Source of the DNA: an uncultured Chloroflexia bacterium
Lineage (GTDB): Bacteria; Chloroflexota; Limnocylindria; Limnocylindrales; CSP1-4
DNA length: 64,000 bases
Direction: 5' to 3'
Assembly: GCA_963754485.1 (NCBI GenBank)
Contig: CAVWFY010000011.1
Coordinates: forward strand, 156,833 to 220,832
Below, piece after piece: positions 15,398 to 60,714 of the stretch. The translations under genes and the position numbers were made by a program. The notes below the pieces were generated by a model that saw only the letters and a list, made by a program, of their open reading frames with translations, was not told the DNA's origin and made no database searches. Position 1 is the stretch's first letter. The number at the start of each line of letters is the position of its first letter.

Positions 15398-16605
15398 CTA
15401 CTCGATCGGCCAGTCCTCCTCGGACCAGCCGCGGACCAGCACCCGGAGACGGTCACGCCAGGCCGGACCCGCTGCCGCGGCGGCGATCACGAGTCCCTCG
15501 CGGATCCCCTCTTCGGACACGGTCAGGCGCTCCGCGGCGTAACGCTCCAGGATCGCGTCCACGATGATCGCCCCGGCCGGCAGGATCCGTGCGCGGGCCG
15601 GTCGGACGAGGTGCCGCTCGGCAGCCTCAAGGCTCCGCTCGACGGTCAGCATCGCGAGCGCCACCGTCAGCCGCCGTCGGGTGAGGACGTGATCCAGGGC
15701 GGTCGCCGGGAGCAGCCGGAGCAGGTTCGCCGCCGTCCCGCCAACCGCAACGATGTCGCCGGGATGGATCGCGGGAGCATCGGCCAGGATCTCCCGGACG
15801 CGAACCCTGACCGCCTCGAGGTCCGCCAGCGTCGGCGGATCGCCGCGCACCAGGTCACGAGTCAGGCGCGCAGCGCCCAGCGGGAGTCCCGTTGCGTGCA
15901 CCTCGCCCGCCGCACTGACGACGACGAACTCGGAGCTGCCTCCGCCGATGTCGACGACGAGCAGATTGGTCTCGATGGGCCGGCCCTTGGTCACGCCCAG
16001 GAGCGTGAGCAGGCCCTCCTCGTCGTGGTCGACAACATGCAGCGGGACGCGGGCGCGCACCTCGACCGCCGAGACGACTGCCGCCGTGTCCTCCGCACGC
16101 CTCAACGGTTCGGTGCCCACGATCGTGATCCGCTCCGCGCCGAGCTGGCGGGCGGTGTCGGCATAGGCGACGAGCGACGCCACGAGCTCCTCCCGGGCAT
16201 CGATGCCCAGATGCCCGTCAGCCGCGACCCGATCGCCAAGGCCCAGGAACACGGACTCGTCAAGGAGCGGCTCCACGCTGTGGCCACCGACCGCCGCGAC
16301 GAGGAGATGGACGCTGGTCGACCCGACGTCAATGGCGGCCCCGATGACGGCCCCGGCCGCGATCTCGATCTTGGCCGCCGCGGGCTCGGGTTCGGGTGAC
16401 GGCTCGATGGGCTCGGGTTCGGGTGGCGGCTCGGGTGACGGCTCGGGTTCTGGCTCAGGTTCTGGTTCAGGTTCAGGTTCTGGTTCTGGTTCAGGTGGCC
16501 TCAGCTCGGGCGCCGGTTCCGGCTCGGCGGCCTCCGGCTCAGCGGCCTCCGGCTCAGCGGCCTCCGGCTCAGGTTCTGGCTCGGGTTCTGGCTCAGCTGG
16601 CCTCC
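15398..16605 (-). CDS. ppx: Ppx/GppA exopolyphosphatase domain; no in-frame start codon near the domain; probably continuous with the lysine-rich ORF upstream after correcting one indel
   Basis: [15 protein letters not shown] followed by DIGGGSSEF; upstream in the same frame only (EP)n repeats and no ATG/GTG/TTG; the rest of the ORF frame (R/P-rich) is a shadow. Confidence 0.75.
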
Positions 16606-16680
16606 GGCTCAGGCTCGGGCTCGGGCTCCACCAAGGGCTCAGGCGCCGGTTCAGGTTCGGGCTCGGGCTCGACGGCCGAA
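16381..16680. repeat. Imperfect GAACCN hexanucleotide (Glu-Pro codon) repeat tract, about 300 bp
   Basis: ggctcgggttcgggt... repeats on the plus strand encode (EP)n on the minus strand; the EP reading phase jumps by one near 16593-16605. Confidence 0.75.
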
Positions 16681-17129
16681 TCCGACGGCACGCGATCAAC
16701 GATGTGGGACGCCGCAGGCTCCCCCACCTGGCGAACGAGGCTGGCGAGCTCCTCGAGCACCGTCCCGGCCGCCGCCGCCAATGCCGTGGAGCGGCCGACT
16801 TCTGCATCTCCCTGCTTCCGGTGTCGCGTCGCCCTGCCGCCCTCCGTATCGGGGGACGTCTTCGGAGCCGCCGCCGCGGACTCCTTCGCGGACTCCTTCG
16901 TGCTCCTCGCGGTGGCCTTCTTGGGCGCCTTCGCGGCCTTCTTGGGCGCCTTCGCGGCCTTCTTCGCGGACTTCCGGGCGAGCTTCTCCGCCTTGTCGGC
17001 GGCCTTCTTCGCGGCCTTCTTCGCGGCCTTGCGGGCCTTCTTGCCGGTCTTGGGACCGCCTGCCAGCGCACCGGCGGCTGACCCTGTGACGCCGGTCGTG
17101 ACCTCGATGTCCCCGGCGTCCGGCATCAC
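16593..17129 (-). CDS. Lysine/alanine-rich histone-H1-like protein; probable N-terminal part of Ppx
   Basis: [42 protein letters not shown], then [16 protein letters not shown] and an EP repeat that ends at a TGA inside the repeat tract; the R/P-rich overlapping frame uses rare AGA/AGG codons and is the shadow. Confidence 0.55.
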
Positions 17130-17256
17130 GTTCCTCCTGACTGAGCTGGGGCACCCGCGACGGAGCGCGCTGTGGCCACCAGTCTGCCGCAGGCGGGAGC
17201 GTCGCGCTGACGGGTACCGCGCGTTGACAACACGTTAACCGGCGTCGAACGAGTCG

Positions 17257-18036
17257 TTGACGGGTGACGCCGATGATCCGCTCGTGGTCGCCTTGCCGCC
17301 TTCCAGTCCCGAACCCAGCCCCGACCAGGTCGCCTGCTTCGCCGGACGGGAGCGGACCGCCTGGCTCGTGCTGGCCAATGGCGGGCCCGCGGTCGCCCTC
17401 CCGGAGCTGGCCGCTACCAGGGCGGTCAATGTCACTGCCGATCCCCGACGCTTCCGGGACATCCTGCTCGCGGAACGACCGAGGATCGTGGTGGTCTGCC
17501 AGCCACCGGCTGGTGACGAGGACCTGGGCCTCGTGGCGTCCGAACGACGCCGTCGACCCCGGCTTCGCGCTCTGCACCTTGCACCCCCGGGGGCCGTCGC
17601 CGACCGCATCGCCGCCCTTGCCCGGGGCTTCGACGACGCGCTCACCACGACGACCACGAGCGGGGAGTTGGCCGCGCGTCTGGAACTGCTCGAGGCTCGG
17701 GCTCGGGAACGTCCCGTGCCCGGCTCCACGCTGCCGGTCGCGCACGGCGTTGAGCTGGACCTGGTCGCTCACGAGGTCCGGCGCGATGCGCTCGCCGTCC
17801 ACCTCCGACCGAAGGAGTTCGGCCTGCTGGCGCTCATGGCGTCCCACCCGGGCCGTGCATACACCCGGCAGGAATTGCTCGAGCGCGTGTGGGGGAAGGG
17901 GCACGAGAGTGGCGTCCGCACGGTGGACGTCCACGTCCGCTGGCTCCGCACGAAGATCGAGAGCGATCCGGAGCGGCCAGCCCATCTCGTGACCGTGCGC
18001 GGCGTCGGCTACCGCCTGGATCCGCCCTTGCGTTAA
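17257..18036 (+). CDS. OmpR/PhoB-family winged-helix regulator with degenerate (pseudo-)receiver domain
   Basis: C-terminal trans_reg_C (LRPKEFGLLALMASHPGRAYTRQELLERVWG...VRTVDVHVRWLRTKIE...VRGVGYRL); the N-terminal 140 aa lack the DD pocket and the phospho-Asp context. Confidence 0.7.
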   Translation: MTGDADDPLVVALPPSSPEPSPDQVACFAGRERTAWLVLANGGPAVALPELAATRAVNVTADPRRFRDILLAERPRIVVVCQPPAGDEDLGLVASERRRRPRLRALHLAPPGAVADRIAALARGFDDALTTTTTSGELAARLELLEARARERPVPGSTLPVAHGVELDLVAHEVRRDALAVHLRPKEFGLLALMASHPGRAYTRQELLERVWGKGHESGVRTVDVHVRWLRTKIESDPERPAHLVTVRGVGYRLDPPLR

Positions 18037-18152
18037 CCGGACCTTAACACCTCGCACACGACCTGTTGACAGCCCGGCCCGAACTTCGGCTCTGTAGAAG
18101 ACCAGAGGCGTCGCACGCGCTCGGGGCGCGACGCCAGACAAGGAGAACCTCC

Positions 18153-47348: not shown

Positions 47349-48044
47349 CTATCCGTCGTCGCCGGTGTCGCGGGGATCCTCGCCGGTGGCGCGGGGATCG
47401 TCGGGTGGACTCGGTTCGGCAGCCGGCCCACCGGAGACGGCCCCAGGTGCGGCGCGCCTGGCGCGCTCGAGGTACTCCGGGCCGTGCTTGCGGGGGTCCG
47501 CGTACTCGCGCGGGTTGAGGGTCCAGTAGGTCCCGGACGACGGCCCGTACCAGGCGCCGCCGTCCCACTCCGGATCGAGCGGGGTCTCGGCGGCTTCGTC
47601 ATACGTCGTCGACCCTGGGGTTGCCTTGCGCGGACCCCGCCTCGCGTGGGACCGCGGGCCCGGGCCGGCGGTCCCAGCTGAACCCGTCGCCCCACCGCGT
47701 CCCGGCGCACCATCCGAGCCAGCGGCACGTCCACTGCCCCCCGCCGCCCGGGAGCGTGTCGCCCCGCCGCTCCCCGACCGCCGCGCGCGCCATGCGTCCC
47801 GCGACGCGCGTGGCCGGCCCGGGGCCTCGGGCGACGGATCGATCCCCGCCGGACGCAACCGGCCCTCGCCGTCCACGAGCCGCTCGTACGCGGCCTGGAT
47901 CGCCAGGAACCGGGGCAACGCGCGTTCACCTGCCGCGTCGGGGTGGTACTTCTTCGCGAGCCGCCGGTACGCCGACTTGATCTCGTTCAGGGAGGCACCT
48001 GGCGAAACGCCGAGCGTGAGGTGCGGGTCTCCCTGGGACGACAT
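47349..48044 (-). CDS. J-domain protein with Gly/Arg-rich disordered region
   Basis: LTLGVSPGASLNEIKSAYRRLAKKYHPD (HPD motif) followed by a low-complexity GR/GS tract. Confidence 0.6.
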   Translation of the reverse strand: MSSQGDPHLTLGVSPGASLNEIKSAYRRLAKKYHPDAAGERALPRFLAIQAAYERLVDGEGRLRPAGIDPSPEAPGRPRASRDAWRARRSGSGGATRSRAAGGSGRAAGSDGAPGRGGATGSAGTAGPGPRSHARRGPRKATPGSTTYDEAAETPLDPEWDGGAWYGPSSGTYWTLNPREYADPRKHGPEYLERARRAAPGAVSGGPAAEPSPPDDPRATGEDPRDTGDDG

Positions 48045-50198: not shown

Positions 50199-52604
50199 CT
50201 ACTGGCTCGCGAGCGCTCCCCGCACCTGACCGTCGTGGACCGCTGCCAGCTGGGCCTCGTCCAGGGCCGGGTGGAGGTCGATCTCGATCCGGTCGATCCT
50301 TCCCGTGAACGGGAAGCGGTGCGGGTACGGCCCCACGGGCGCCCCCGTGTCCACGCCGACGTCGAGCGTTTCCCCGCTCATCGAGAACAGGAACGGGACC
50401 GTCCGCTCGATCCGACCCCCCGCGACCTCCCGGTCATCGACGGTGAGCCGGATCCGCCCGCCCTTTCCCAGCCCGCCGCCGTCGTAGTCGAAGTGCACCC
50501 CCAGCACGATTTCGCCCGTCGGAAGGGGATCCGTGCCGGCGATCCGGGTCAGGATCCGGCCGAACAGGTTGTAGTAGTAGACGGGACATCCGTCCTGGAC
50601 GTAGAGCGACCAGCCGGCCATGTTGCCGCCCTGGCAGATGACGACGCCTTCCGCGCCACCCTCCGGGATCGCCAGCTTCGCCCGCAGGTCGAACGACGTG
50701 TTCTTGAGGCTCACGGACGCGAGCTCGGGGAGGCGGACGTGGTCGCGGTACAGGGTGAAGCTCGTCTTCCCGTCGAGGAGGCTGGGCCGGTTGTGCGGGA
50801 GCGCACGGAGAGTCGTCTGGTCGCTGAGCGGGTACACGCCGAATGCCCGTGCCTCGCGGTCGAAGATGGCCTGGAGCTCACGGAGCTTCTCGGGGAACTG
50901 CGCGGCGACGTCGGCGGCCTGGCTGAAATCGTCATCGACGCGATAGAGCTCCCAGCGCTCGCTCTCCCCGAACTCGACGGCTTGTGATCGCACCCACGGC
51001 AGGCGGCCGTGGAAGCAGGCGGCCACCCATCCCTCGTGGTAGATCGCGCGGTTGCCGAGGATCTCGAAGTACTGCGTCGTGCGCCGGCTAGTGGCCGCGG
51101 CGTCGTCGAACGTGTAGCGGAGGCTCACGCCCTCCATCGGTCGCTGCTCGATGCCGTTGACCACGGCCGGCTCTTCGATACCCGCGACATCGAGGATCGT
51201 CGGAACGAGGTCGATGACGTGGTGGAACTGCGACCGAAGCTCGCCGCGGGCGACCATGCCGATCGGCCACGAGACCGCCATGCCGTTGCGGGTGCCGCCG
51301 AAGTGGGAGGCGACCTGCTTCATCCACTGGAACGGCGCGTCGAGCGCCCAGGCCCAGGCGACGTTGAAATGGTTCTCGCAGCGAGGCGACCCGAAGTCGT
51401 CGATGTGGGCCAGCAGCCACTCGGGATCCTCGGGCTCGCCGTTCTGGAACGACGGCGAGCTCCACGCGCCGTGCAGCGTCCCCTCGCCCGATGCCCCGTT
51501 GTCACCCACCAGGTAGACGACGAGCGTGTTCTCCGCCTGGCCGAGATCGCCCAGGGCGTCGAGCAGGCGCCCAACCTGGGCATCGGTGTGGGCGAGGAAG
51601 GCCGCGTAGACCTCCATCAGCCGGCGGGCGACCGGCTTGTAACGGTCCGGGTAGTCGTCCCACGCGGGGATCTGCTCGGGGCGGGGTGTGAGGATGGTGC
51701 CCGGCGGGATGACGCCCAGCTCGAGCTGGCGGGCGTGGGTCCGCTCCCGGAGCGCGTCCCAGCCGTCGTCGAACTGGCCGCGGAACCGCTCGATCCATTC
51801 CGGCCAGACATGGTGCGGCGCGTGCGTGGCGCCCGGCGAGAAGTAGACGAAGAATGGCTTGTCGGGCGCCGCCGCCTTCTGGAGGCGCATCCACTCGATC
51901 GTGCGGTCGGCCAAGTCCTCCGTCAGGTGATAGTCCTCACGACCGACGTACGGCTCGATCGGCGTCGTCTGGTCGTAGAGGGCCGGTTCCCACTGCGACG
52001 CCTCGCCGCCCAGGAACCCGTAGAAGCGCTCGAAGCCCAACCCCGTGGGCCAGCGGTCAAAGGGCCCGGCCGGGCTCGTCTCCCACATCGGCGTGACGTG
52101 AGCCTTGCCGAACATCGCGGTGCTGTAGCCGTTGAGGCGGAGGATCTCGGCGACGGTCGCGGTGCTGCGCGGGATGATCCCGTCGTAGCCCGGGAAGCCG
52201 TAGGCGATCTCGGAGATCCCGCCCATGTGGGCGCTGTGGTGGTTGCGGCCCGTCAGGAGCGCGGCCCGGGTCGGCGAGCACAGCGCCGTCGTGTGGAACC
52301 GGTTGTACGTCACTCCCTGGGCCGCGACGCGGTCAAGCGCGGGCGTGGGGACCGGCCCACCGAAGGTGCTCGGGGCCCCGAACCCGACGTCGTCGTACAT
52401 CACGACGATCACGTTCGGGGCGCCCGTTGGCGCGCGCTCGATCTCAGGGCGCGATGGCGTCGATGCGGTCGCCAGCTCGGCGATGACGCCGCCGAACGGG
52501 CGCTCCGGGCGCGGGAGACGTCCCGTCGGGCGGTCGGGGGCTGACAAGGAATCCTCCGCGCTCAGGGAGCTCCCAGCCGGCAGGCGCCCTCGGGTCGCGC
52601 TCAT
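50199..52604 (-). CDS. Arylsulfatase (formylglycine-dependent sulfatase family)
   Basis: CSPTRAALLTGR (C-x-P-x-R FGly motif) and GKAH; 801 aa. Confidence 0.85.
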   Translation of the reverse strand: MSATRGRLPAGSSLSAEDSLSAPDRPTGRLPRPERPFGGVIAELATASTPSRPEIERAPTGAPNVIVVMYDDVGFGAPSTFGGPVPTPALDRVAAQGVTYNRFHTTALCSPTRAALLTGRNHHSAHMGGISEIAYGFPGYDGIIPRSTATVAEILRLNGYSTAMFGKAHVTPMWETSPAGPFDRWPTGLGFERFYGFLGGEASQWEPALYDQTTPIEPYVGREDYHLTEDLADRTIEWMRLQKAAAPDKPFFVYFSPGATHAPHHVWPEWIERFRGQFDDGWDALRERTHARQLELGVIPPGTILTPRPEQIPAWDDYPDRYKPVARRLMEVYAAFLAHTDAQVGRLLDALGDLGQAENTLVVYLVGDNGASGEGTLHGAWSSPSFQNGEPEDPEWLLAHIDDFGSPRCENHFNVAWAWALDAPFQWMKQVASHFGGTRNGMAVSWPIGMVARGELRSQFHHVIDLVPTILDVAGIEEPAVVNGIEQRPMEGVSLRYTFDDAAATSRRTTQYFEILGNRAIYHEGWVAACFHGRLPWVRSQAVEFGESERWELYRVDDDFSQAADVAAQFPEKLRELQAIFDREARAFGVYPLSDQTTLRALPHNRPSLLDGKTSFTLYRDHVRLPELASVSLKNTSFDLRAKLAIPEGGAEGVVICQGGNMAGWSLYVQDGCPVYYYNLFGRILTRIAGTDPLPTGEIVLGVHFDYDGGGLGKGGRIRLTVDDREVAGGRIERTVPFLFSMSGETLDVGVDTGAPVGPYPHRFPFTGRIDRIEIDLHPALDEAQLAAVHDGQVRGALASQ

Positions 52605-52716
52605 TGTCGCCCATCGCGTTGCCTTCGGGATCGTGAATGCCCGATGTACCCTACGGCCGAGGCCGGACCTGCGGCGCGCACGACCTCACCAGTCACCACC
52701 CGGTGATGGCAGATGG

Positions 52717-54330
52717 GTGCGCGGCCGGTCGAGGGGCCCAGCGTTGCACAAGCCGCCAATCCCGGCAGTCATCGCGGAGCTGTTCGAAGCACCTGTCGCT
52801 CGCAACGGGCTGATCGCGGGAACGCTCGCCCTCGTGGCAGCCGCCCTCGATCCCAAGGTCTGGAGCGCATCCCTGCCCACGATCCAGGCCGTGATCCGGG
52901 AGCGTCCGAGCGTGGAATCGCTGGTCCTGCTCGCGGCGGTCGGGGGCGCCGCCCTCCTCCTCGTCGGCGGCGCCGTCGGTGACACGGTTCGCGCCCGGCG
53001 CGTCATCGTGGGCGGGCTGGCCGTCGAGCTGGCCGCGGCGGTGGCGAGCCTGCTCGTCCCCTCGGGACCACTGTTCGTCGCATCGAGATTCATCGGGCAT
53101 GGGGCGGCGGCGTTCGTCATCCCGGCATCGCTTGCGCTCGTCGCACTGAGCTACAGGGGCATCCCGCGCGCCACGGCGATCGGCATGGCCTACGGCGCCT
53201 ACAGCGGTGCGGCCGCCGTGGCGCCGATCCTCCTGCAGCTTTCGCCCGGACTGCGTGCCCCTGCCTTCGTGGCCGCCATCGTGGCGTGCGTCCTCGCGCT
53301 GTGGCTCGTCCGCTCGCGGATCCCGGATCTCGATCGACCGACGCTGCCCGAACGGCCGTACGTTGTCAGGACGGCCATCTGGGCCTTCGGCATCATCTCT
53401 CTCACGGTGGGCCTCACGTGGGTGGGTGCGGGCTGGGACAACCCGCTGCGCCTGGGCCTGGTCATCGGCGGCGTCGGCATCGTGGGTCTCGCGCTCCTCC
53501 GCGACCGGGCACGGTCCGGCTCCGGTCACGCGGGCGTCAGGATCGAGCGACGGCCAGCCGCGATCGCCGTCATCATCGGGGTGATCCTCGGCATCGCCCA
53601 GACAGCGCCGATGCTCGAGCTCCCGCGCTACTTCCAGCTCGTCCTCCGCTTCAACCCGGTGCTTGCCGTCGTGGCACTGGCGCCGCTCTTCGGAGCGCTC
53701 GTGGTGGCGGGGCCGGCCGCGGGTTTCATGCTGGCGCGCTGGTCGCCACGGAGGCTCGTCGGTGCGGGAGCCATCGTGGTGGGCGTCGGCAACCTGCTCC
53801 TGGCCGTCGTGGTCACGGCCTCGACGGGCTACCTGCTGTTCGTGATCCCGTGCTTCCTCATCGGGGCAGGGTTCGTCGTCGCCACTACTGTGAGGACAGC
53901 CATCATCTTCGCGAGTGTCCCGCGCGGGCTGCCCGCCACGGCAGCTGCGCTGAACGAGGCATCGATCTCGGTCGGCAACAGGATCGGCATCGTGATCATC
54001 ACCGCGCTCGTCGCCGAGATCGCGATCACAACGTACACGGCCAGCGTGGCCGGGCTGCCCGCGACCGAGGCCCAACAAGCGATCGCGGGCTTTCGCGATG
54101 TCCTGGTCGCGGTCGGCACGCCGTCCTTCGTCGCGGCGTCGGAAGCCGTCGCGTCCGTCGATGCGTCGGCGTACATGCAGGCGTACGCCTCGGGTGTGGG
54201 CACCGCGCTCGCACTGAGTGGCGTCGTGGTGATCATCGGCGGCGCCATCGCGTGGCTTGCCCTCGGCCATCGGGACCCATTGGCGACCGTGTACGAGCAT
54301 CGCGACGAGCGGGTCGTGACGGGGGTCTGA
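52717..54330 (+). CDS. MFS transporter
   Basis: 12-14 predicted TM helices; the start is uncertain (GTG 52717 or TTG 52744); the upstream part of the 701-aa ORF is a shadow of the sulfatase. Confidence 0.7.
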   Translation: MRGRSRGPALHKPPIPAVIAELFEAPVARNGLIAGTLALVAAALDPKVWSASLPTIQAVIRERPSVESLVLLAAVGGAALLLVGGAVGDTVRARRVIVGGLAVELAAAVASLLVPSGPLFVASRFIGHGAAAFVIPASLALVALSYRGIPRATAIGMAYGAYSGAAAVAPILLQLSPGLRAPAFVAAIVACVLALWLVRSRIPDLDRPTLPERPYVVRTAIWAFGIISLTVGLTWVGAGWDNPLRLGLVIGGVGIVGLALLRDRARSGSGHAGVRIERRPAAIAVIIGVILGIAQTAPMLELPRYFQLVLRFNPVLAVVALAPLFGALVVAGPAAGFMLARWSPRRLVGAGAIVVGVGNLLLAVVVTASTGYLLFVIPCFLIGAGFVVATTVRTAIIFASVPRGLPATAAALNEASISVGNRIGIVIITALVAEIAITTYTASVAGLPATEAQQAIAGFRDVLVAVGTPSFVAASEAVASVDASAYMQAYASGVGTALALSGVVVIIGGAIAWLALGHRDPLATVYEHRDERVVTGV

Positions 54331-54573: not shown

Positions 54574-56790
54574 GTGTTGCGACCCTGGATCGTGCGGAGG
54601 GATCGCGTCGTCCGAGTCCTCATGGCCGAGCCCTGGGCACCGGTTGTCTCGGTCATCGCGCCGCCCGGCTACGGGAAGACGATCCTCCTCGCGGACTGGG
54701 CGTCTCGCGAGCGACGGCCCGTCACGTGGCTCACCATCGACGACTACGACAACGAGCCGAGCGTCTTCCTCACCTACCTCGCCGCGGCGCTCGACCGCCT
54801 CGCCCCGATCGATCCGGGGGTCGGACGGGCAATCGCCTCCTCGCCGACGCGTCTCCTGGGGACGGCGGTGCCGCGCCTTGCGGCTGCTGTCCACCGGATC
54901 GGCGAGCCGGCCGTCCTCATCCTCGACGACGCACACCGGCTGGTCGATCGGACGTGCCTCGATGCCCTCGTCGCGCTCATCGACCACCTGCCGGACGGAT
55001 TCCAGGTTGCCCTTGCTGGGCGCGCCGAGCCGGACCTGAATCTCGCCAGGCTCCGCGCTCGCCGGGACCTCCTCGAGATCGGGGCGTCCGAACTCGCCCT
55101 CGACGTGGACGAGACGAAGCGACTCACTGACGCGGCGGGGCGTTCGCTCACGCCCGACCAGGTCAGCGTGCTCCGCGAACGGACCGAAGGTTGGGCGACG
55201 GGCATCTACCTGGCCACGCTGGCCGGTGCCGGGTCCGTCGATCCCGGCCGCGCGACCGTGATGGTGTCCGGCCAGGATCCGGCGATCGCCGACTATCTCC
55301 GTTCCGAGCTGCTGTCCAGCCTCGGCGACGAGGACCAGACATTCCTCACCAGGTCGTCGATCCTCGAGGTCGTCGAACCTTCGGTCGCCGAGGCCGTGAC
55401 CGGGATGCGCGGAGCGGCGGAGCGCCTGCGGTCGCTGGCCCGGGACAATCGTCTCGTCGCGCCGCTCGCGGGCGGTGCGCCCTCCTACCGGTTCCACCAC
55501 GTCCTGTCCGAGTACCTGCGGGCCGAGCTCGAGCGCCGGGAGCCCGGGGCGACGACGGAGCTTCATCGCCGCGCCGCCACCTGGTTCGAGGATGCGGGCC
55601 GACCCGAGGTCGCGATCGAGCACGCGCTGGCCGGTGCCGATCAAGCGACCGCGGCGCGTCTCGTCGTTGCGATCACCTTGCCGATGCACTACGCGGGGCA
55701 CACGGACCTGCTCGATCGCTGGATCCGGACCTTTGACGAGACGACGTTCGAGCGGCTTCCGCCGCTGGCCGTCGTTGGCGCGTTGGTGAACGGCGTCACC
55801 GGGAGGGCGGAGGCGGCCGAGCGACTAGCCCACATCGCCGAACGCTCGACGTTCGCCGGAATTCCTGGGGACGGTTCTGCGTCATTCGAGTCTGCGCGCG
55901 CGATCCTGCGGGCGGCCATGGCTCGGCGCGGTCCAGACGATATGCTCGCGAACTCCCGGCTGGCGGTCGAGGCCGAGCCGCCGACCAGCCCATGGCGCCC
56001 GATGGCCCTCTACGGTCTGGGCGCCGCGCACATCCTGCGTGGCGAGTTCGCCACGGCCGACGCCGTCCTGGCCGAGGCCGTCGATGGCGCAGCCCCCGCC
56101 GGCACGTCTCCGTTCTACGGGCTGGCCATGCGCTCGACCCTCGCGATGGCACGGGCCGACTGGCGAATCGCCGAGCGACTCGCACAGGAGAGCCATGCCG
56201 CCTTCGACGCGACACGGCTTCGAGACGTCGCCACCGCCATCCACGTCCACGCCGTCTCTGCCCGCGTGGCCATCCATCGTGGCGACAGCGCGCGCGGCCG
56301 CGAGGAGCTCGTCCACGCCCAGCTCGTCCGTCCGCTGGCTTCGTACGCGCTGCCGTGGACCGCGGTCGGGGCACTCATCGAGCTCGCCCGGGCCTACCTG
56401 GCGATCGCCGACACGGCGGGTGCCCGGACGGCCGTCGCCGAGGCGGAGGAGGTGGTGCGCCGACGGCCCGACCTCGGCCTGCTGACGGACCGCCTCGCCG
56501 AGCTGCGCCGCCAGGTGGACGCCGCGGCGAGCTCGCTGGCCGGACCGTCGACGCTCACCCCCGCCGAGCTCCGGGTGCTGCCCCTGCTCTCCACGCATCT
56601 CACGTTCCAGGAGATCGCGGACCGCCTGTTCAACTCCCGCAGCACGATCCACTCCCACGCGATGGCCATCTACACGAAGCTCGAGGTCAGCGGCCGCGGC
56701 GAGGCCGTCGAGCGGGCGATCGAGCTCGGCCTCCTGGAGCCGTTCCCCGGGCTCAGGCTCACGGCGCGGAGCCAGCCGGACGGGGACTGA
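54574..56790 (+). CDS. LAL/MalT-type large ATP-binding LuxR-family regulator
   Basis: P-loop APPGYGKT, long TPR-like middle region, C-terminal LuxR HTH (LTPAELRVLPLL...TIHSHAMAIYTKL). Confidence 0.8.
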   Translation: MLRPWIVRRDRVVRVLMAEPWAPVVSVIAPPGYGKTILLADWASRERRPVTWLTIDDYDNEPSVFLTYLAAALDRLAPIDPGVGRAIASSPTRLLGTAVPRLAAAVHRIGEPAVLILDDAHRLVDRTCLDALVALIDHLPDGFQVALAGRAEPDLNLARLRARRDLLEIGASELALDVDETKRLTDAAGRSLTPDQVSVLRERTEGWATGIYLATLAGAGSVDPGRATVMVSGQDPAIADYLRSELLSSLGDEDQTFLTRSSILEVVEPSVAEAVTGMRGAAERLRSLARDNRLVAPLAGGAPSYRFHHVLSEYLRAELERREPGATTELHRRAATWFEDAGRPEVAIEHALAGADQATAARLVVAITLPMHYAGHTDLLDRWIRTFDETTFERLPPLAVVGALVNGVTGRAEAAERLAHIAERSTFAGIPGDGSASFESARAILRAAMARRGPDDMLANSRLAVEAEPPTSPWRPMALYGLGAAHILRGEFATADAVLAEAVDGAAPAGTSPFYGLAMRSTLAMARADWRIAERLAQESHAAFDATRLRDVATAIHVHAVSARVAIHRGDSARGREELVHAQLVRPLASYALPWTAVGALIELARAYLAIADTAGARTAVAEAEEVVRRRPDLGLLTDRLAELRRQVDAAASSLAGPSTLTPAELRVLPLLSTHLTFQEIADRLFNSRSTIHSHAMAIYTKLEVSGRGEAVERAIELGLLEPFPGLRLTARSQPDGD

Positions 56791-56917
56791 CGTCTGGCTT
56801 GCGAAGTCGACTGATCTGGTCGATGCGCCGCGCCCGGGATGGGCGGACCGTTCATGCACAGAGCAGCGGCTCTCGACAGACCGCGCACGCCACGGATACG
56901 GATGAGAGGGATCGACC

Positions 56918-58081
56918 ATGGCCGCCGAACGAGTCTCCACCACCGTCCCGCTGAACTGGAACGAGGTCTGGTTCACCAACTGCCCCATGGTCTCCGCCAA
57001 CAACGTGGACCAGGAGTTGGGGTGGTGCCGCGAGGAGTTCAAGAAGATCGGCGTCGACTACGCCTACTTCCGCCACGCTCCCGAGAACAACTGGTACCCG
57101 CACTACATCCACAACCTCGACAACCTGATCCGCTTCGGCGGCCTCTACCCGCCGATCCACGTCAACGCCGACATCCGTCGCACCGTGCTGCTCGGCGCGA
57201 CGTGGGTCTACGAGGGCGGCTGCATGGCCGTGCGCGCCGACGACAAGCTGTTCCGGATGCAGGACCTCAAGGGCAAGAAGGTCGGCATCAGCAAGAGCCT
57301 GAACACCATCAAGAACGACTGGTGGCGGATCCAGGAGCACATGGGCATCGAGAACATGCTCATGCTCAACGGCATGACCATGGACGACATCGAGCTCGTC
57401 GAGTTCCCGTACCCGGACGACTGGTACGACAAGCCCGAGATGCTCGCGGTCACGATGAACAACCCGTCCGAGCTGTGGATGCGCCGCGACCACAAGCACG
57501 ACTACGCCTTCCGCCCGCTCGAGAAGGCCCTCCTGGCCGGCACCGTCGACGCGATCTACACGCAGAGCAAGGTGTTCCAGCACATCCAGGAGGCGACCGG
57601 CCAGCTCGCGATGATCGAGGACCTGACCCGGTACCCGGACTGGCGGGTCCAGGTCGCCAACACGCCGGCCGTCATCACCTGCACGGACGTCATGGCCGAC
57701 GAGCACCCCGAGCTGGTCGTCGCCTACATGAAGGCCATGATCAAGGTCGGCCGCTGGGCGAACGAGAACAAGCACGCCGCCGGCGCGATCCTCAACCGCC
57801 AGACCTTCTACCTCGATGCCGAGGACACGTACCAGGGCATCAAGGACGTCGACATGGTCCCGAGCCTCAGCGCCCGGAACCTGCAGACGATCAAGATCGG
57901 CAAGGACTTCATGTTCAGCCACGGCTACATCAAGCACGACTTCGACGTGGACGAGTGGGCACGCCCGGAGTTCCTCGAGCAGGCGGCGACCGAGGTGCTC
58001 AAGGAGGAGTGGGAGCGCCGAAGCTGGAGCAAGCTGCCGCACGGCGGCGGGCTCGAGGTGGAAGGCGTCCGGCTCGGCTGA
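56918..58081 (+). CDS. Cytoplasmic SsuA/THI5-fold protein resembling DszB (2'-hydroxybiphenyl-2-sulfinate desulfinase family)
   Basis: No signal peptide; TNCPMVSA near the N-terminus (DszB has an SNCPVPNA-like Cys nucleophile motif) and IRFGGLYPP (DszB has a TRFGGEIPP-like motif). Confidence 0.55.
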   Translation: MAAERVSTTVPLNWNEVWFTNCPMVSANNVDQELGWCREEFKKIGVDYAYFRHAPENNWYPHYIHNLDNLIRFGGLYPPIHVNADIRRTVLLGATWVYEGGCMAVRADDKLFRMQDLKGKKVGISKSLNTIKNDWWRIQEHMGIENMLMLNGMTMDDIELVEFPYPDDWYDKPEMLAVTMNNPSELWMRRDHKHDYAFRPLEKALLAGTVDAIYTQSKVFQHIQEATGQLAMIEDLTRYPDWRVQVANTPAVITCTDVMADEHPELVVAYMKAMIKVGRWANENKHAAGAILNRQTFYLDAEDTYQGIKDVDMVPSLSARNLQTIKIGKDFMFSHGYIKHDFDVDEWARPEFLEQAATEVLKEEWERRSWSKLPHGGGLEVEGVRLG

Positions 58082-58315: not shown

Positions 58316-59173
58316 ATGACCACTTCTAACGGCACCCGCATGCAGCAGCTCGGCTACCGCGCGCCCGACGCGGTCCCGGAGCCCGAGCAGCTCGTCCTCG
58401 TCGACTACGTCTCGGAGGGGCGGATCGCGGTCATCACCATCAACCGGCCCCATGCCCTCAACGCCGTCACGACGGCCCTCGCGGCGCAGCTCATCGAGAT
58501 CCTCGAGACGATCAGCGCCCGGGCCTCCGTCCGCGTGGCGATCCTCACGAGCGCGGGCGACGAGGCCTTCTCGGTCGGCGGCGACCTGTACGAGCGCAAG
58601 TCGATGACGCAGGAGCAGTGGCTCCGCCAGCGCCAGGTGTTCGACCGGGTGCTGTTCGAGCTGCGCCAGTCCCGCCGCCCGATCTTCGCCGCCGTCCACG
58701 GGATGGCCTACGGCGGCGGCTGCGAGATGGCGATCAGCACCGACTTCATCATCGCCAGCGACGACGCCGTTTTCGGCCAGCCAGAGGCGATGGTCGGGCT
58801 GTCGGCGGGCGGCGGCTCGCCGGTCTTCCTGCCCCGCTTCCTCCCGCCCGGCAGGGCGATGCAGATGCTGATGACGGGGCAGCCGATCACCGCCCAGGAG
58901 GCGTACCGGCTGGGCATGGTCAACGAGGTCCACCCGCGAGCCGAGCTCATGGACGCCGCGCTGCGGATCGCCGAGCAGATCGCGATCAACTCGCCGACCG
59001 CGGTGCAGGCGGTCAAGCGGGCGGTGCAGATGGGCCAGGGCGAGCCGGTGGAGCAGGCGATCGCGATCATGATGGAGGAGCACTGGCGCTCGGTCGTCCA
59101 TGCCGATCGTGTCGAGGGCATCCATGCTTTCGTCGAGGAGCGCGAGCCCGTCTTCGCCGACCCTGACGTCTGA
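58316..59173 (+). CDS. Enoyl-CoA hydratase/isomerase (crotonase) family protein
   Basis: RPHALNAV, GDEAFSVGGDL, AAVHGMAYGGGCEMAISTDF; GAAGGA RBS before the ATG at 58316. Confidence 0.85.
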   Translation: MTTSNGTRMQQLGYRAPDAVPEPEQLVLVDYVSEGRIAVITINRPHALNAVTTALAAQLIEILETISARASVRVAILTSAGDEAFSVGGDLYERKSMTQEQWLRQRQVFDRVLFELRQSRRPIFAAVHGMAYGGGCEMAISTDFIIASDDAVFGQPEAMVGLSAGGGSPVFLPRFLPPGRAMQMLMTGQPITAQEAYRLGMVNEVHPRAELMDAALRIAEQIAINSPTAVQAVKRAVQMGQGEPVEQAIAIMMEEHWRSVVHADRVEGIHAFVEEREPVFADPDV

Positions 59174-59243: not shown

Positions 59244-59845
59244 ATGAGCGAGACCAACCCCATCGAGACGATCGCCCTGGCGCGACAGACCGGCCTCGGG
59301 CTGTACGTCACCGCCAAGGAGGCGTACGACATGTGGCAGGCCGACCCGGGCCTGAAGATCCTCGACGTCCGCACGCCCGGAGGAGTTCGTCTTCGTCGGC
59401 CACGCACCGATGGCCACGAACATCCCGTTCGCGCTCCAGACCTACGAGTGGGATCCGGAGAAGAAGGCGCTCCGCTGGGAGCTCAACCCCGAGTTCGTCG
59501 CGGCGGTGCAGGCGTGGGCCGCGCCCGACGAGCAGATCCTCGTCGCGTGCCGGTCCGGCGGCCGCTCCGCGATGGCGATCAACATGCTGGCGAAGGCCGC
59601 CGGGTACACGCGCGGCCTGGAACATCCTCGACGGCTGGGAGGGGAGCCAGGTCAAGGACCCCGAGAGCGTCTTCGACGGCATGCGCATGAAGAACGGCTG
59701 GAAGAACTCCGGCCTGCCCTGGACCTACGAGATCGATCCCCGAACGGATGCAGCTGCCGCCGCGCGAGAGCCGCGACGTTCGTGGCCGGGAACGAGCACG
59801 ACTGACGTACGACCGCGGTCCACCGTCCGCGCCGACGAGGAGTGA
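59244..59845 (+). pseudogene. Rhodanese-domain sulfurtransferase gene interrupted by two +1 frameshifts (near 59378 and near 59614)
   Basis: AAGGAGG RBS; LKILDVRTP | EEFVFVGHAPMATNIPF...ILVACRSGGRSAMA...GYTR | WNILDGWEG spread over three frames; span is 3n+2; both shifts are single-base insertions at G/C dinucleotides. Confidence 0.65.
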
Positions 59846-59847
59846 GC

Positions 59848-60714
59848 ATGCTCTCGGAGACCCTGCAGGTCATCACCCAGGTCGCGATGCTCGTGTTCGT
59901 GGTCGGCAGCATGGCCGCCATGGGCCTGGGCCTGACCGTCGCGCGGATCGCCCAGCCGCTGCGCGACGTTCGGCTGGTGGTGGCGCTGCTCGTCGTCAAC
60001 TTCGTCGTCGTCCCCGCGGCTGCCATCGCGGCGGCGCGGCTGCTGCCGATGGAGCCTGCCGCGGCGACCGCCGTCGTGCTGATCGGATGCGTGGGTGGCG
60101 CGCCGTTCCTGCCCAAGCTCGCCAAGCTGGCCAAGTCGAACCTGGCCCTCGCGGTCGGGGCGATGGTCCTCCTCATGGTCGTCACGATCGGGTACGCGCC
60201 GATCGTGGTGCCGCTGGCGGTCGAGGGCGCGACGGTGGACCCGCTCGCGATCGCGCAGTCGCTCGTCCTGTTCATGCTCATCCCGCTCGGCCTCGGGCTC
60301 CTCGTGCGCGCCCGCTACCCGGAGCTGGCCGACGACTGGGTCGGCCGGGCCGGCCACGCGTCCACCATGGGACTGCTCCTCGGGATCGGGAGCGCGCTCC
60401 TGCTGACCTGGCGCGAGGTGATCGGCTCGATCGGGACGTACATCTTCGTGGGCCTCGCGATCATCCTCGTGGTCGGGCTGCTTGCCGGCTGGCTGGCCGG
60501 CATGGGACGCCCATCGGGCGAGCGCACGCTGATGGGGCTCGCGACCGCGAACCGCAACATCGCGGCGGCGCTCGTCATCGCCACGTCGATCGGCGGCGAC
60601 ACCATCGTGTACACGCTCGTCGGAGCGCTGACGATCCCCGTCGTGCTGATCGTGCTCGCCGGCCAGATCGGCCGCCGCTCCGTCGCGACCGAACCGCTCC
60701 CGAGTACCGCGTAG
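59848..60714 (+). CDS. Bile acid:sodium symporter (BASS) / ACR3-like family transporter
   Basis: About nine TM helices with BASS-like sequence; ATG at 59848. Confidence 0.65.
   Translation: MLSETLQVITQVAMLVFVVGSMAAMGLGLTVARIAQPLRDVRLVVALLVVNFVVVPAAAIAAARLLPMEPAAATAVVLIGCVGGAPFLPKLAKLAKSNLALAVGAMVLLMVVTIGYAPIVVPLAVEGATVDPLAIAQSLVLFMLIPLGLGLLVRARYPELADDWVGRAGHASTMGLLLGIGSALLLTWREVIGSIGTYIFVGLAIILVVGLLAGWLAGMGRPSGERTLMGLATANRNIAAALVIATSIGGDTIVYTLVGALTIPVVLIVLAGQIGRRSVATEPLPSTA

Follow-up and report, generated by a model that had tools for sequence, protein, structure and literature searches.

The 64,000-nucleotide stretch of an uncultured Chloroflexia bacterium analysed here (contig CAVWFY010000011.1 of assembly GCA_963754485.1; hereafter the window) contains a gene of 387 codons plus stop, at 56918-58081 on the forward strand, and raises the question of whether its product is a transport protein or an enzyme. 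The source databases name the homologues of its clade as binding proteins of ABC nitrate/sulfonate/bicarbonate transporters. A preliminary description made from the nucleotides only had proposed a catalytic homolog of the desulfinase DszB. We find that the protein is a cytoplasmic member of the DszB superfamily that has kept the DszB active-site residues under strong purifying selection, and we lean, with modest confidence, towards a soluble sulfite-releasing C-S hydrolase of the DszB type acting on a small anionic organosulfur substrate. To our knowledge, DszB is the only characterised enzyme of its fold and chemistry, and it is known almost wholly from fuel biodesulfurization. What is new is the family, with its pattern of conservation and its partners; the fold and the catalytic apparatus were already known.

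The cellular location follows from the 5' end of the gene. An in-frame TGA (56903-56905) stands four codons before the ATG at 56918, and a Shine-Dalgarno-like GAGAGGGA motif lies just 5' of this ATG. The start codon is therefore fixed, and an N-terminal extension, a signal peptide or a lipobox is impossible. The N-terminus, MAAERVSTTVPLNWNEVWFTNC, has no hydrophobic segment, and the first predicted beta-strand of the AlphaFold2 model begins at residue 16. The preliminary description had read a 387-residue cytoplasmic protein without signal peptide, and this holds. The two motifs that it had singled out are also in place, TNCPMVSA at residues 20-27, with Cys22, and IRFGGLYPP at residues 71-79, with Arg72, 50 residues past Cys22. 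Several clade members outside the window (P0009, P0023, P0043, P0086, P0092, P0104-P0107) carry a genuine N-terminal extension of 60-95 residues, composed of Lys/Ala/Pro-rich low-complexity sequence and a conserved helix motif, L..IAKLVLGKLDEHG.SLEQAVAAIQ; it looks like a targeting or polyanion-binding tail. The window protein cannot carry such an extension because of the upstream in-frame stop. At the other end, a clade-specific tail, EEWERRSWSKLPxGGGL....RLG (58025-58078, residues ~370-387), is conserved in sequence and ends in (R/K)LG, the Rhizobium-type homologue included. Its predicted local distance difference test score (pLDDT) is ~50, and it may be a docking peptide.

Sequence and structure comparisons all pick DszB. 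With phmmer against all PDB chain sequences, only DszB was matched (2DE2, 2DE3 and 2DE4; E=2.4e-8). BLASTP against a DszB sequence confirmed to be identical to 2DE2 gave 24% identity over residues 19-356 (E=1e-15), pairing Cys22, His62, Arg72 and Gly75 with DszB Cys27, His60, Arg70 and Gly73, and Gly74 with Gly72. The active site of DszB is formed by Cys27, His60, Arg70 and Gly73 and is gated by loops 50-60, 135-150 and 180-200 (PMC12168087). A family profile built from 63 members lifts the DszB match to E=2.9e-22, now with the segment around Cys27 aligned as well. Against this profile, bona fide SsuA and TauA binding proteins align only through their central and C-terminal scaffold and not in the N-terminal Cys/His/Arg segment. 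When the AlphaFold2 model was compared with the PDB using Foldseek, substrate-bound DszB ranked first (E=1.8e-19; target TM 0.71-0.75 for 2de3 and 2de2), followed by SsuA and Thi5, the Thi5 structures being at 12-13% identity. The Pfam NMT1 family is over threshold (29.2 vs 20.5 bits), its best matched stretch covering only residues 102-163, and TIGR01728 (SsuA_fam) reaches 50.4 bits against a cutoff of 163.5. The SsuA/THI5 binding-protein fold proposed earlier is confirmed by the NMT1 match and by the ranking of SsuA and Thi5, and the phmmer, BLASTP, profile and Foldseek results show that the resemblance to DszB, in which the Cys-nucleophile and RFGG..PP segments had been recognised, is no accident. 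Where the model is of low confidence (residues 51-60 and 171-200), DszB has its substrate-gating loops 1 and 3. Gating loop 2 (residues 135-150), which in DszB closes over the biphenyl substrate, is held by two insertions that only DszB has; neither the window protein nor any of the 29 other relatives in a 31-sequence alignment carries them (columns 201-230).

This superfamily alignment comprises the query, four clade members, 25 distant representatives and DszB, at 25-86% identity. Only seven of its columns are invariant: C22, H62, R72, G74, G75, G119 and L148. The Cys/His/Arg triad of DszB, whose conservation was the critical point of the earlier proposal, is thus unchanged across all 31 members. 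Among the 99 collected copies, 98 keep the C/H/R/G/G set, and the exception is N-terminally truncated. In an exhaustive HMMER scan of 1.84 billion cluster representatives, only 964 relatives were found at E<=0.001; the window clade forms little more than a single cluster at the 50% identity level there, and beyond it full-length relatives are thinly spread over 28-44% identity. Distant relatives (25-30% identity) sit in dsz-like or ssu-like operons. In R. acidisoli (pRapFH23a), an LLM flavin oxidoreductase gene, a DszB-like gene and an acyl-CoA-dehydrogenase-family gene follow each other in an order that mirrors dszA-dszB-dszC, and in Sphingobium (pTomTYG65a) a distant DszB-like gene lies beside ssuABC and monooxygenases. 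Desulfinase chemistry would thus be the ancestral context of the superfamily. A sister clade of ~40% identity, in which the triad is kept, forms tandem paralogue arrays within ABC-importer operons, followed by SCO1/SenC and nitroreductase genes, with no rhodanese present. Opitutaceae TAV5 (CP007053.1, 6285391-6304479) has seven such adjacent genes of ~360 codons, not all of them with a Pfam match, and Mesorhizobium sp. DCY119 provides a further example. Yet another context is seen on a plasmid of R. leguminosarum bv. trifolii 22B (NZ_CP050095.1, 211590-230696). There a 65%-identical homologue comes straight after an amino-acid-type ABC importer and a gene of the homocysteine S-methyltransferase family; an FAD-dependent oxidoreductase lies downstream, and the stretch shown has no annotated rhodanese.

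The clade of the window protein is strikingly conserved. A large protein database gave 2,999 matches, of which the best 120 are all 77-94% identical to it; the sources assign them to Alphaproteobacteria, Cyanobacteria, Bacteroidota, Chloroflexi and Thermoleophilia. A scan with one genome per species showed relatives in 527 genomes; among the best 80, at 87-97% identity, are Nitrospira sp. NS4, Ignavibacteria, Burkholderiales, Acidobacteriota and two methanogen metagenome-assembled genomes (MAGs), although MAG assignments may be binning errors. The clade is also present in marine Synechococcus, and its amino-acid identity is 78-97% across several phyla, with 191 of the 387 positions at least 95% conserved across 99 copies. 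A recent sweep was rejected as the cause of this extreme identity: four-fold degenerate sites are near chance (0.47-0.60 identical vs 0.36-0.50 by chance) while the proteins are 88-94% identical. The DszB-like gene is under strong purifying selection. There is a local dip in GC content at the gene (0.63 vs 0.70), for which recent horizontal transfer was considered and rejected. GC at third codon positions (GC3) of the DszB-like gene rises with the GC content of the host (r=0.85), up to 0.95-0.98 where this is ~72%, and the dip therefore stems from the fixed amino-acid composition. Two archaeal MAGs, from Methanoregulaceae and Methanosarcinales, hold copies 88-89% identical to the window protein whose GC3 is 0.77 against a contig GC of 0.50-0.54; either inter-domain transfer or a binning error would account for them. 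An apparent fusion to rhodanese (P0016, with the JGI label SBP/rhodanese) that could have served as Rosetta-stone evidence was discarded, P0016, P0007 and P0100 being artefacts of frameshift read-through.

The surroundings of the gene are conserved as well. Co-occurrence was counted in 83 loci related to the window, with a neighbour range of 7 kb for rhodanese. Any rhodanese-domain gene was found within this range in 78 loci, a homologue of the MalT-like regulator upstream of the DszB-like gene in 38, SulP in 25 and SBF in 17, the last also being present in the Rhizobium plasmid operon and the metagenome loci described below. A crotonase (median 81% identity, maximum 98%, the L027 locus included) and a CoA-disulfide-reductase-rhodanese fusion (e.g. 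L002) each occur in 13. Carriers of the SulP, SBF or MFS type are present in 37 of the 83. According to a Pfam census, which relies on crude gene calls, the gene immediately downstream codes for a rhodanese in at least 37 of 82 loci. Intact rhodanese orthologues adjoin the DszB-like gene in most other loci, the same pairing exists in cultured genomes, and tandem rhodanese pairs are found in L004 and in the Rhizobium plasmid operon L086. ABC permease or ATPase genes (BPD_transp, ABC_tran) and Ssu-type components are not recurrent neighbours of the window clade, nor are dszA/dszC partners among the recurrent neighbours in the 83 loci; the latter occur only beside distant relatives. The real conserved unit is a regulator, the DszB-like gene, in part of the loci a crotonase, a rhodanese and an anion transporter.

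How could such a unit work? The protein would be a soluble enzyme built on a periplasmic-binding-protein (SsuA-like) fold that lost its export signal and bears the DszB active site, with Cys22 as the catalytic residue and with His62, Arg72 and the Gly74-Gly75 loop holding the S-oxyanion group of the substrate. The expected reaction would be R-SO2(-) + H2O -> R-H + HSO3(-). Its substrate may be a small and widely available sulfinate, or a thiosulfonate once rhodanese has taken its sulfane sulfur, and would differ from hydroxybiphenyl sulfinate, probably in being smaller. Rhodaneses can draw sulfur from thiosulfonates and pass it on to sulfinates or sulfite. In view of this range, the rhodanese could make the sulfinate from a thiosulfonate or turn the sulfite product into thiosulfate, and the rhodanese-desulfinase pair could thus mineralise thiosulfonates or make thiosulfate for export. 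The SulP, SBF or MFS anion carrier would bring the substrate into the cell or remove sulfite or thiosulfate from it, and an activator of the MalT or AraC type would sense the substrate. Nothing in this analysis points specifically to the aromatic sulfinates that the preliminary description had considered as assay substrates.

In some genomes the DszB-like gene belongs to a larger module. On a plasmid of R. leguminosarum ATCC 14479 (NZ_CP030763.1, 409857-428951), a 69%-identical homologue lies in an operon with two 2-hydroxyacyl-CoA-dehydratase-family genes upstream of it, two dehydratase-activase ATPase genes, an SBF-type carrier, two rhodaneses and SulP. A tight-clade locus from an actinomycete MAG (L027:1720-10495) has the same four genes of benzoyl-CoA reductase/2-hydroxyacyl-CoA dehydratase (BCR/HAD) type at 72-88% identity; after them come the DszB-like gene, the crotonase and a protein of tandem FMN-reductase/flavodoxin-like type. 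A reciprocal scan of metagenome contigs with the dehydratase-family subunit gave 79 loci (L088-L166) at 67-90% identity, where the second subunit, the ATPases, a short rhodanese, SBF, the DszB-like gene, a long rhodanese and SulP are recurrent companions. Among the 16 contigs that reach 7.5 kb, 9 carry a DszB-like gene. The four-gene module, with two HGD-D and two different BcrAD ATPase genes, is 67-90% conserved among Rhizobium, the actinomycete MAG and soil and wetland metagenomes. Two different ATPase genes and two catalytic subunits are what we take to be the layout of class I benzoyl-CoA reductase. A description of a BCR/HAD-type module with these partners was not found in the literature searched, and the genes themselves are not in the window. 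Since some genomes combine the module with a crotonase, this four-subunit ATP-dependent enzyme and a flavodoxin-like donor, it is suggested that the sulfinate can arise upstream without oxygen. One might go further and see in the whole a widespread module of sulfur metabolism for oxygen-independent C-S cleavage, a proposal to which we give only a small chance. Its parts would be the DszB-like hydrolase, the rhodanese or rhodaneses and the SBF/SulP carrier, with the crotonase, the flavodoxin-like donor and the four-subunit BCR/HAD-type iron-sulfur enzyme as optional members. The ATP-driven low-potential enzyme would make a sulfinate by reduction of a sulfone, a sulfonate or an activated organosulfur compound, in place of the oxygenase DszA; the DszB-like enzyme would then release sulfite by hydrolysis, and its removal would fall to rhodanese and carrier. 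Were the substrate as small as dimethylsulfone or methanesulfinate, a hydrocarbon would be left as the carbon product.

Several points weigh against a DszB-type hydrolase. Identity to DszB is only 24% and the insertions of gating loop 2 are missing, so the substrate must differ from that of DszB. The conserved Cys/His/Arg site could serve binding or sulfur transfer rather than hydrolysis, and the window clade has no linkage to the flavin monooxygenases from which sulfinates usually arise. The partner rhodanese is disrupted in the window (see below), which may leave the module only partly functional in this bacterium. Conservation this strong is not typical of a simple catabolic hydrolase; it hints at additional constraints, for instance from partners or oligomers, that the hydrolase model does not explain. 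Finally, the literature searched yielded no description of the clade, its activity or its module. A rival reading is a sulfur relay, in which Cys22 takes or gives a persulfide or S-sulfonate with rhodanese (from thiosulfate, thiosulfonates or S-sulfo compounds) while His62 and Arg72 bind the oxyanion and no C-S bond is cleaved. The Cys is invariant, the rhodanese linkage is near-obligate and often involves two tandem rhodaneses or the CoA-disulfide-reductase fusions, and SulP-type inorganic-anion carriers are frequent neighbours. However, the full set of active-site residues is the one known from a C-S hydrolase, and distant relatives of that enzyme lie in dsz-like operons; in the sister clade the triad persists without a rhodanese in the vicinity; and the crotonase and BCR/HAD-type partners point to an organic substrate; we regard a relay as unlikely.

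The fold also recalls a non-catalytic ligand binder of the cytoplasm that would sense or chaperone a sulfonate, sulfinate or sulfite and pass it to rhodanese, to the BCR/HAD-type enzyme or to the regulator. Such a role would fit an extreme conservation imposed by many interaction surfaces, a C-terminal tail that could dock on a partner, and the gene order in Rhizobium and in the metagenome locus L141, where the gene lies between the catalytic and ATPase subunits of the BCR/HAD-type enzyme like an accessory subunit. It is nevertheless improbable in our view, as binding alone would not need the Cys that is invariant at the catalytic position even at 25% identity, and most loci are without any large partner enzyme. 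We know of no binder in the DszB branch. The more specific role given by the database names, a periplasmic substrate-binding protein of an ABC importer, is effectively ruled out: it agrees with the weak SsuA_fam and NMT1 matches, but no signal peptide can exist, the SsuA_fam score is far below cutoff, permease and ATPase genes do not recur and the best PDB match is an enzyme. The opposite assignment, a true DszB orthologue acting as 2'-hydroxybiphenyl-2-sulfinate desulfinase (EC 3.13.1.3) in the 4S dibenzothiophene pathway, shares catalytic residues and fold with the window protein and can be set aside just as firmly. The sequence divergence and the lack of loop-2 insertions speak against it, and dszA- or dszC-like genes are absent among the annotated window genes as among the recurrent neighbours. 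The distribution of dsz operons also differs from that of a hyperconserved clade found in organisms such as marine Synechococcus and Nitrospira. Homology, fold and cytoplasmic location hold as first proposed, the triad is conserved, and the protein is a superfamily member rather than an orthologue of DszB; a DszB-type hydrolase with another substrate is the reading that we prefer.

The genes around the DszB-like gene in the window are listed in Table 1.

Table 1. Positions in the window of the DszB-like gene, its active-site codons and its neighbours.
Feature	Position	Strand	Basis
Sulfatase-family protein of 800 aa with long C-terminal extension; upstream, past the MFS and regulator genes	50199-52604	-	window annotation
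MFS transporter; mechanical open reading frame (ORF) starts inside the opposite-strand sulfatase gene, Pfam match from residue 217, start taken at 52861	52225-54330	+	ORF and Pfam
MalT/LuxR-type regulator (AAA ATPase domain and GerE helix-turn-helix), directly upstream on the same strand	54574-56790	+	Pfam AAA_22/AAA_16 and GerE; NCBIfam MalT 259 bits, below cutoff
In-frame TGA and GAGAGGGA motif resembling a ribosome-binding site	56903-56917	+	read directly from sequence
DszB-superfamily gene, 387 aa, cytoplasmic, SsuA-like fold, hyperconserved clade; predicted C-S hydrolase of desulfinase type	56918-58081	+	sequence, profile and structure comparisons; AlphaFold2 pLDDT 84.9, predicted TM score (pTM) 0.86
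Cys22 codon, equivalent of catalytic Cys27 of DszB	56981-56983	+	alignments; superfamily-invariant
His62 codon, equivalent of DszB His60 (sulfinate binding)	57101-57103	+	alignments; role of His60 from PMC12168087
Arg72-Phe73-Gly74-Gly75 codons, equivalent of DszB Arg70-Phe71-Gly72-Gly73 (sulfinate-binding loop)	57131-57142	+	alignments; roles of Arg70 and Gly73 from PMC12168087
Enoyl-CoA hydratase/crotonase-family gene, ~285 aa from ATG; ORF could begin at TTG 58130	58316-59173	+	Pfam ECH_1 5.6e-60; no NCBIfam equivalog at cutoff
Long-type rhodanese gene with CRSGGRS active-site loop and GWKNSGLPW C-terminal motif; four 1-nt insertions	59244-59805	+	tblastn matches in three frames; DNA alignment to intact L007 and L004 orthologues
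SBF/BASS-family anion transporter (bile acid:Na+ symporter type)	59842-60714	+	Pfam SBF/SBF_like

The regulator is likely to be an effector-responsive activator of the module. As read in translation, the crotonase keeps the glutamate positions GGGCE and GQPE, presumably the canonical ones of the enoyl-CoA hydratase active site, which suggests CoA-thioester chemistry in part of the module. None of the window neighbours reaches the cutoff of an NCBIfam equivalog, and the searches made for riboswitches, other RNAs, promoters or terminators gave no clue. The idea that the gene lies in a sulfur island had to be abandoned. The rest of the window is mostly housekeeping (pst-phoU, a sugar ABC transporter, ProS, GltX, PhoR/PhoP, a carboxyltransferase with OAD-beta subunit, PitA, IdeR, asparaginase and upp), the sulfatase has a homologue (~44% identity) in only 6 of the 83 loci, and the MFS gene of the window has one in none. 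The link between the sulfatase and the DszB-like gene is weak or coincidental.

The rhodanese of the window differs from the intact L007 and L004 orthologues, to which its DNA is otherwise ~90% identical, by 1-nt insertions at ~59376, 59613, 59738 and 59774. The gene reads in three frames, although the CRSGGRS loop is still encoded. All four indels are confined to this one 560-nt gene; the flanking regulator, DszB-like, crotonase and SBF genes, ~5 kb together, have no frameshift, and no second rhodanese of these types was found in the window. This points to a pseudogene, and a young one, or else to a localised assembly error. A scan of codon phase (GC3) for indel noise flagged 47.1-47.8 kb, which corresponds to a low-complexity DnaJ-domain protein (47349-48044, reverse strand). 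At 16400-18100, the GC3 profile switches frame repeatedly over ~1.7 kb in a manner resembling the rhodanese region; low complexity, overlapping genes or more frameshifts could produce this pattern.

DszB thus has a much larger family of uncharacterised relatives, labelled in databases as binding proteins of ABC transporters and present in 527 species genomes of soil, freshwater and marine bacteria, in some of which the gene is linked to an ATP-dependent radical or low-potential enzyme. If they are desulfinases, a common natural sulfinate or thiosulfonate would exist whose turnover is missing from sulfur-cycle schemes, and the larger module would possibly be an anaerobic counterpart of the 4S pathway. 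The DszB step has been described as limiting for biodesulfurization, owing to slow turnover and product inhibition (PMC12168087), and such a family would supply new scaffolds for it. Cultured carriers, namely Aliisedimentitalea scapharcae, Chelatococcus asaccharovorans, Rhizobium leguminosarum ATCC 14479 and Nitrospira sp. NS4, allow direct testing.

Among known systems, DszB of Rhodococcus IGTS8 (2DE2/2DE3/2DE4), of which TdsB and BdsB are homologues, is the closest. It shares with the window protein the type-II binding-protein (SsuA-like) fold in the cytoplasm, a full-length alignment, the active-site residues and flexible segments at loops 1 and 3. The window protein differs by its low identity and the absence of the loop-2 insertions, and carries a conserved insertion of its own, FPYPDDWYDKPEM, as well as a C-terminal tail of 30 residues. 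Its gene is not beside dszA/dszC but tied to those for rhodanese and anion carriers, and varies far less from phylum to phylum. The dszABC-like and ssu-like operons of R. acidisoli and Sphingobium belong to the same superfamily at ~25-30% identity, and their DszB-like genes have LLM-class flavin monooxygenases, acyl-CoA-dehydrogenase-family proteins and SsuABC importers as flanking genes, whereas those of the window clade do not. With SsuA/TauA and Thi5/NMT1, the window protein has in common the two-lobe fold and the central and C-terminal scaffold motifs; it lacks a signal peptide and ABC partners, its N-terminal Cys/His/Arg segment has no match there, and its scores are far under the SsuA cutoff. 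The partner module of some loci has the two HGD-D subunits and two different BcrAD-type ATPases of class I benzoyl-CoA reductase, 2-hydroxyacyl-CoA dehydratase and double-cubane-cluster enzymes, from which it differs by sitting with the DszB-like gene, rhodaneses, SBF and SulP, with no CoA ligase seen nearby. The other known hydrolytic desulfinase is AcdDPN7, the 3-sulfinopropionyl-CoA desulfinase of Advenella mimigardefordensis, an enzyme mentioned in PMC5373536. It has an acyl-CoA-dehydrogenase fold unrelated to the DszB-like protein, and the analogy is functional only; its substrate is a CoA thioester, reminiscent of the crotonase and BCR/HAD-type partners of some DszB-like loci.

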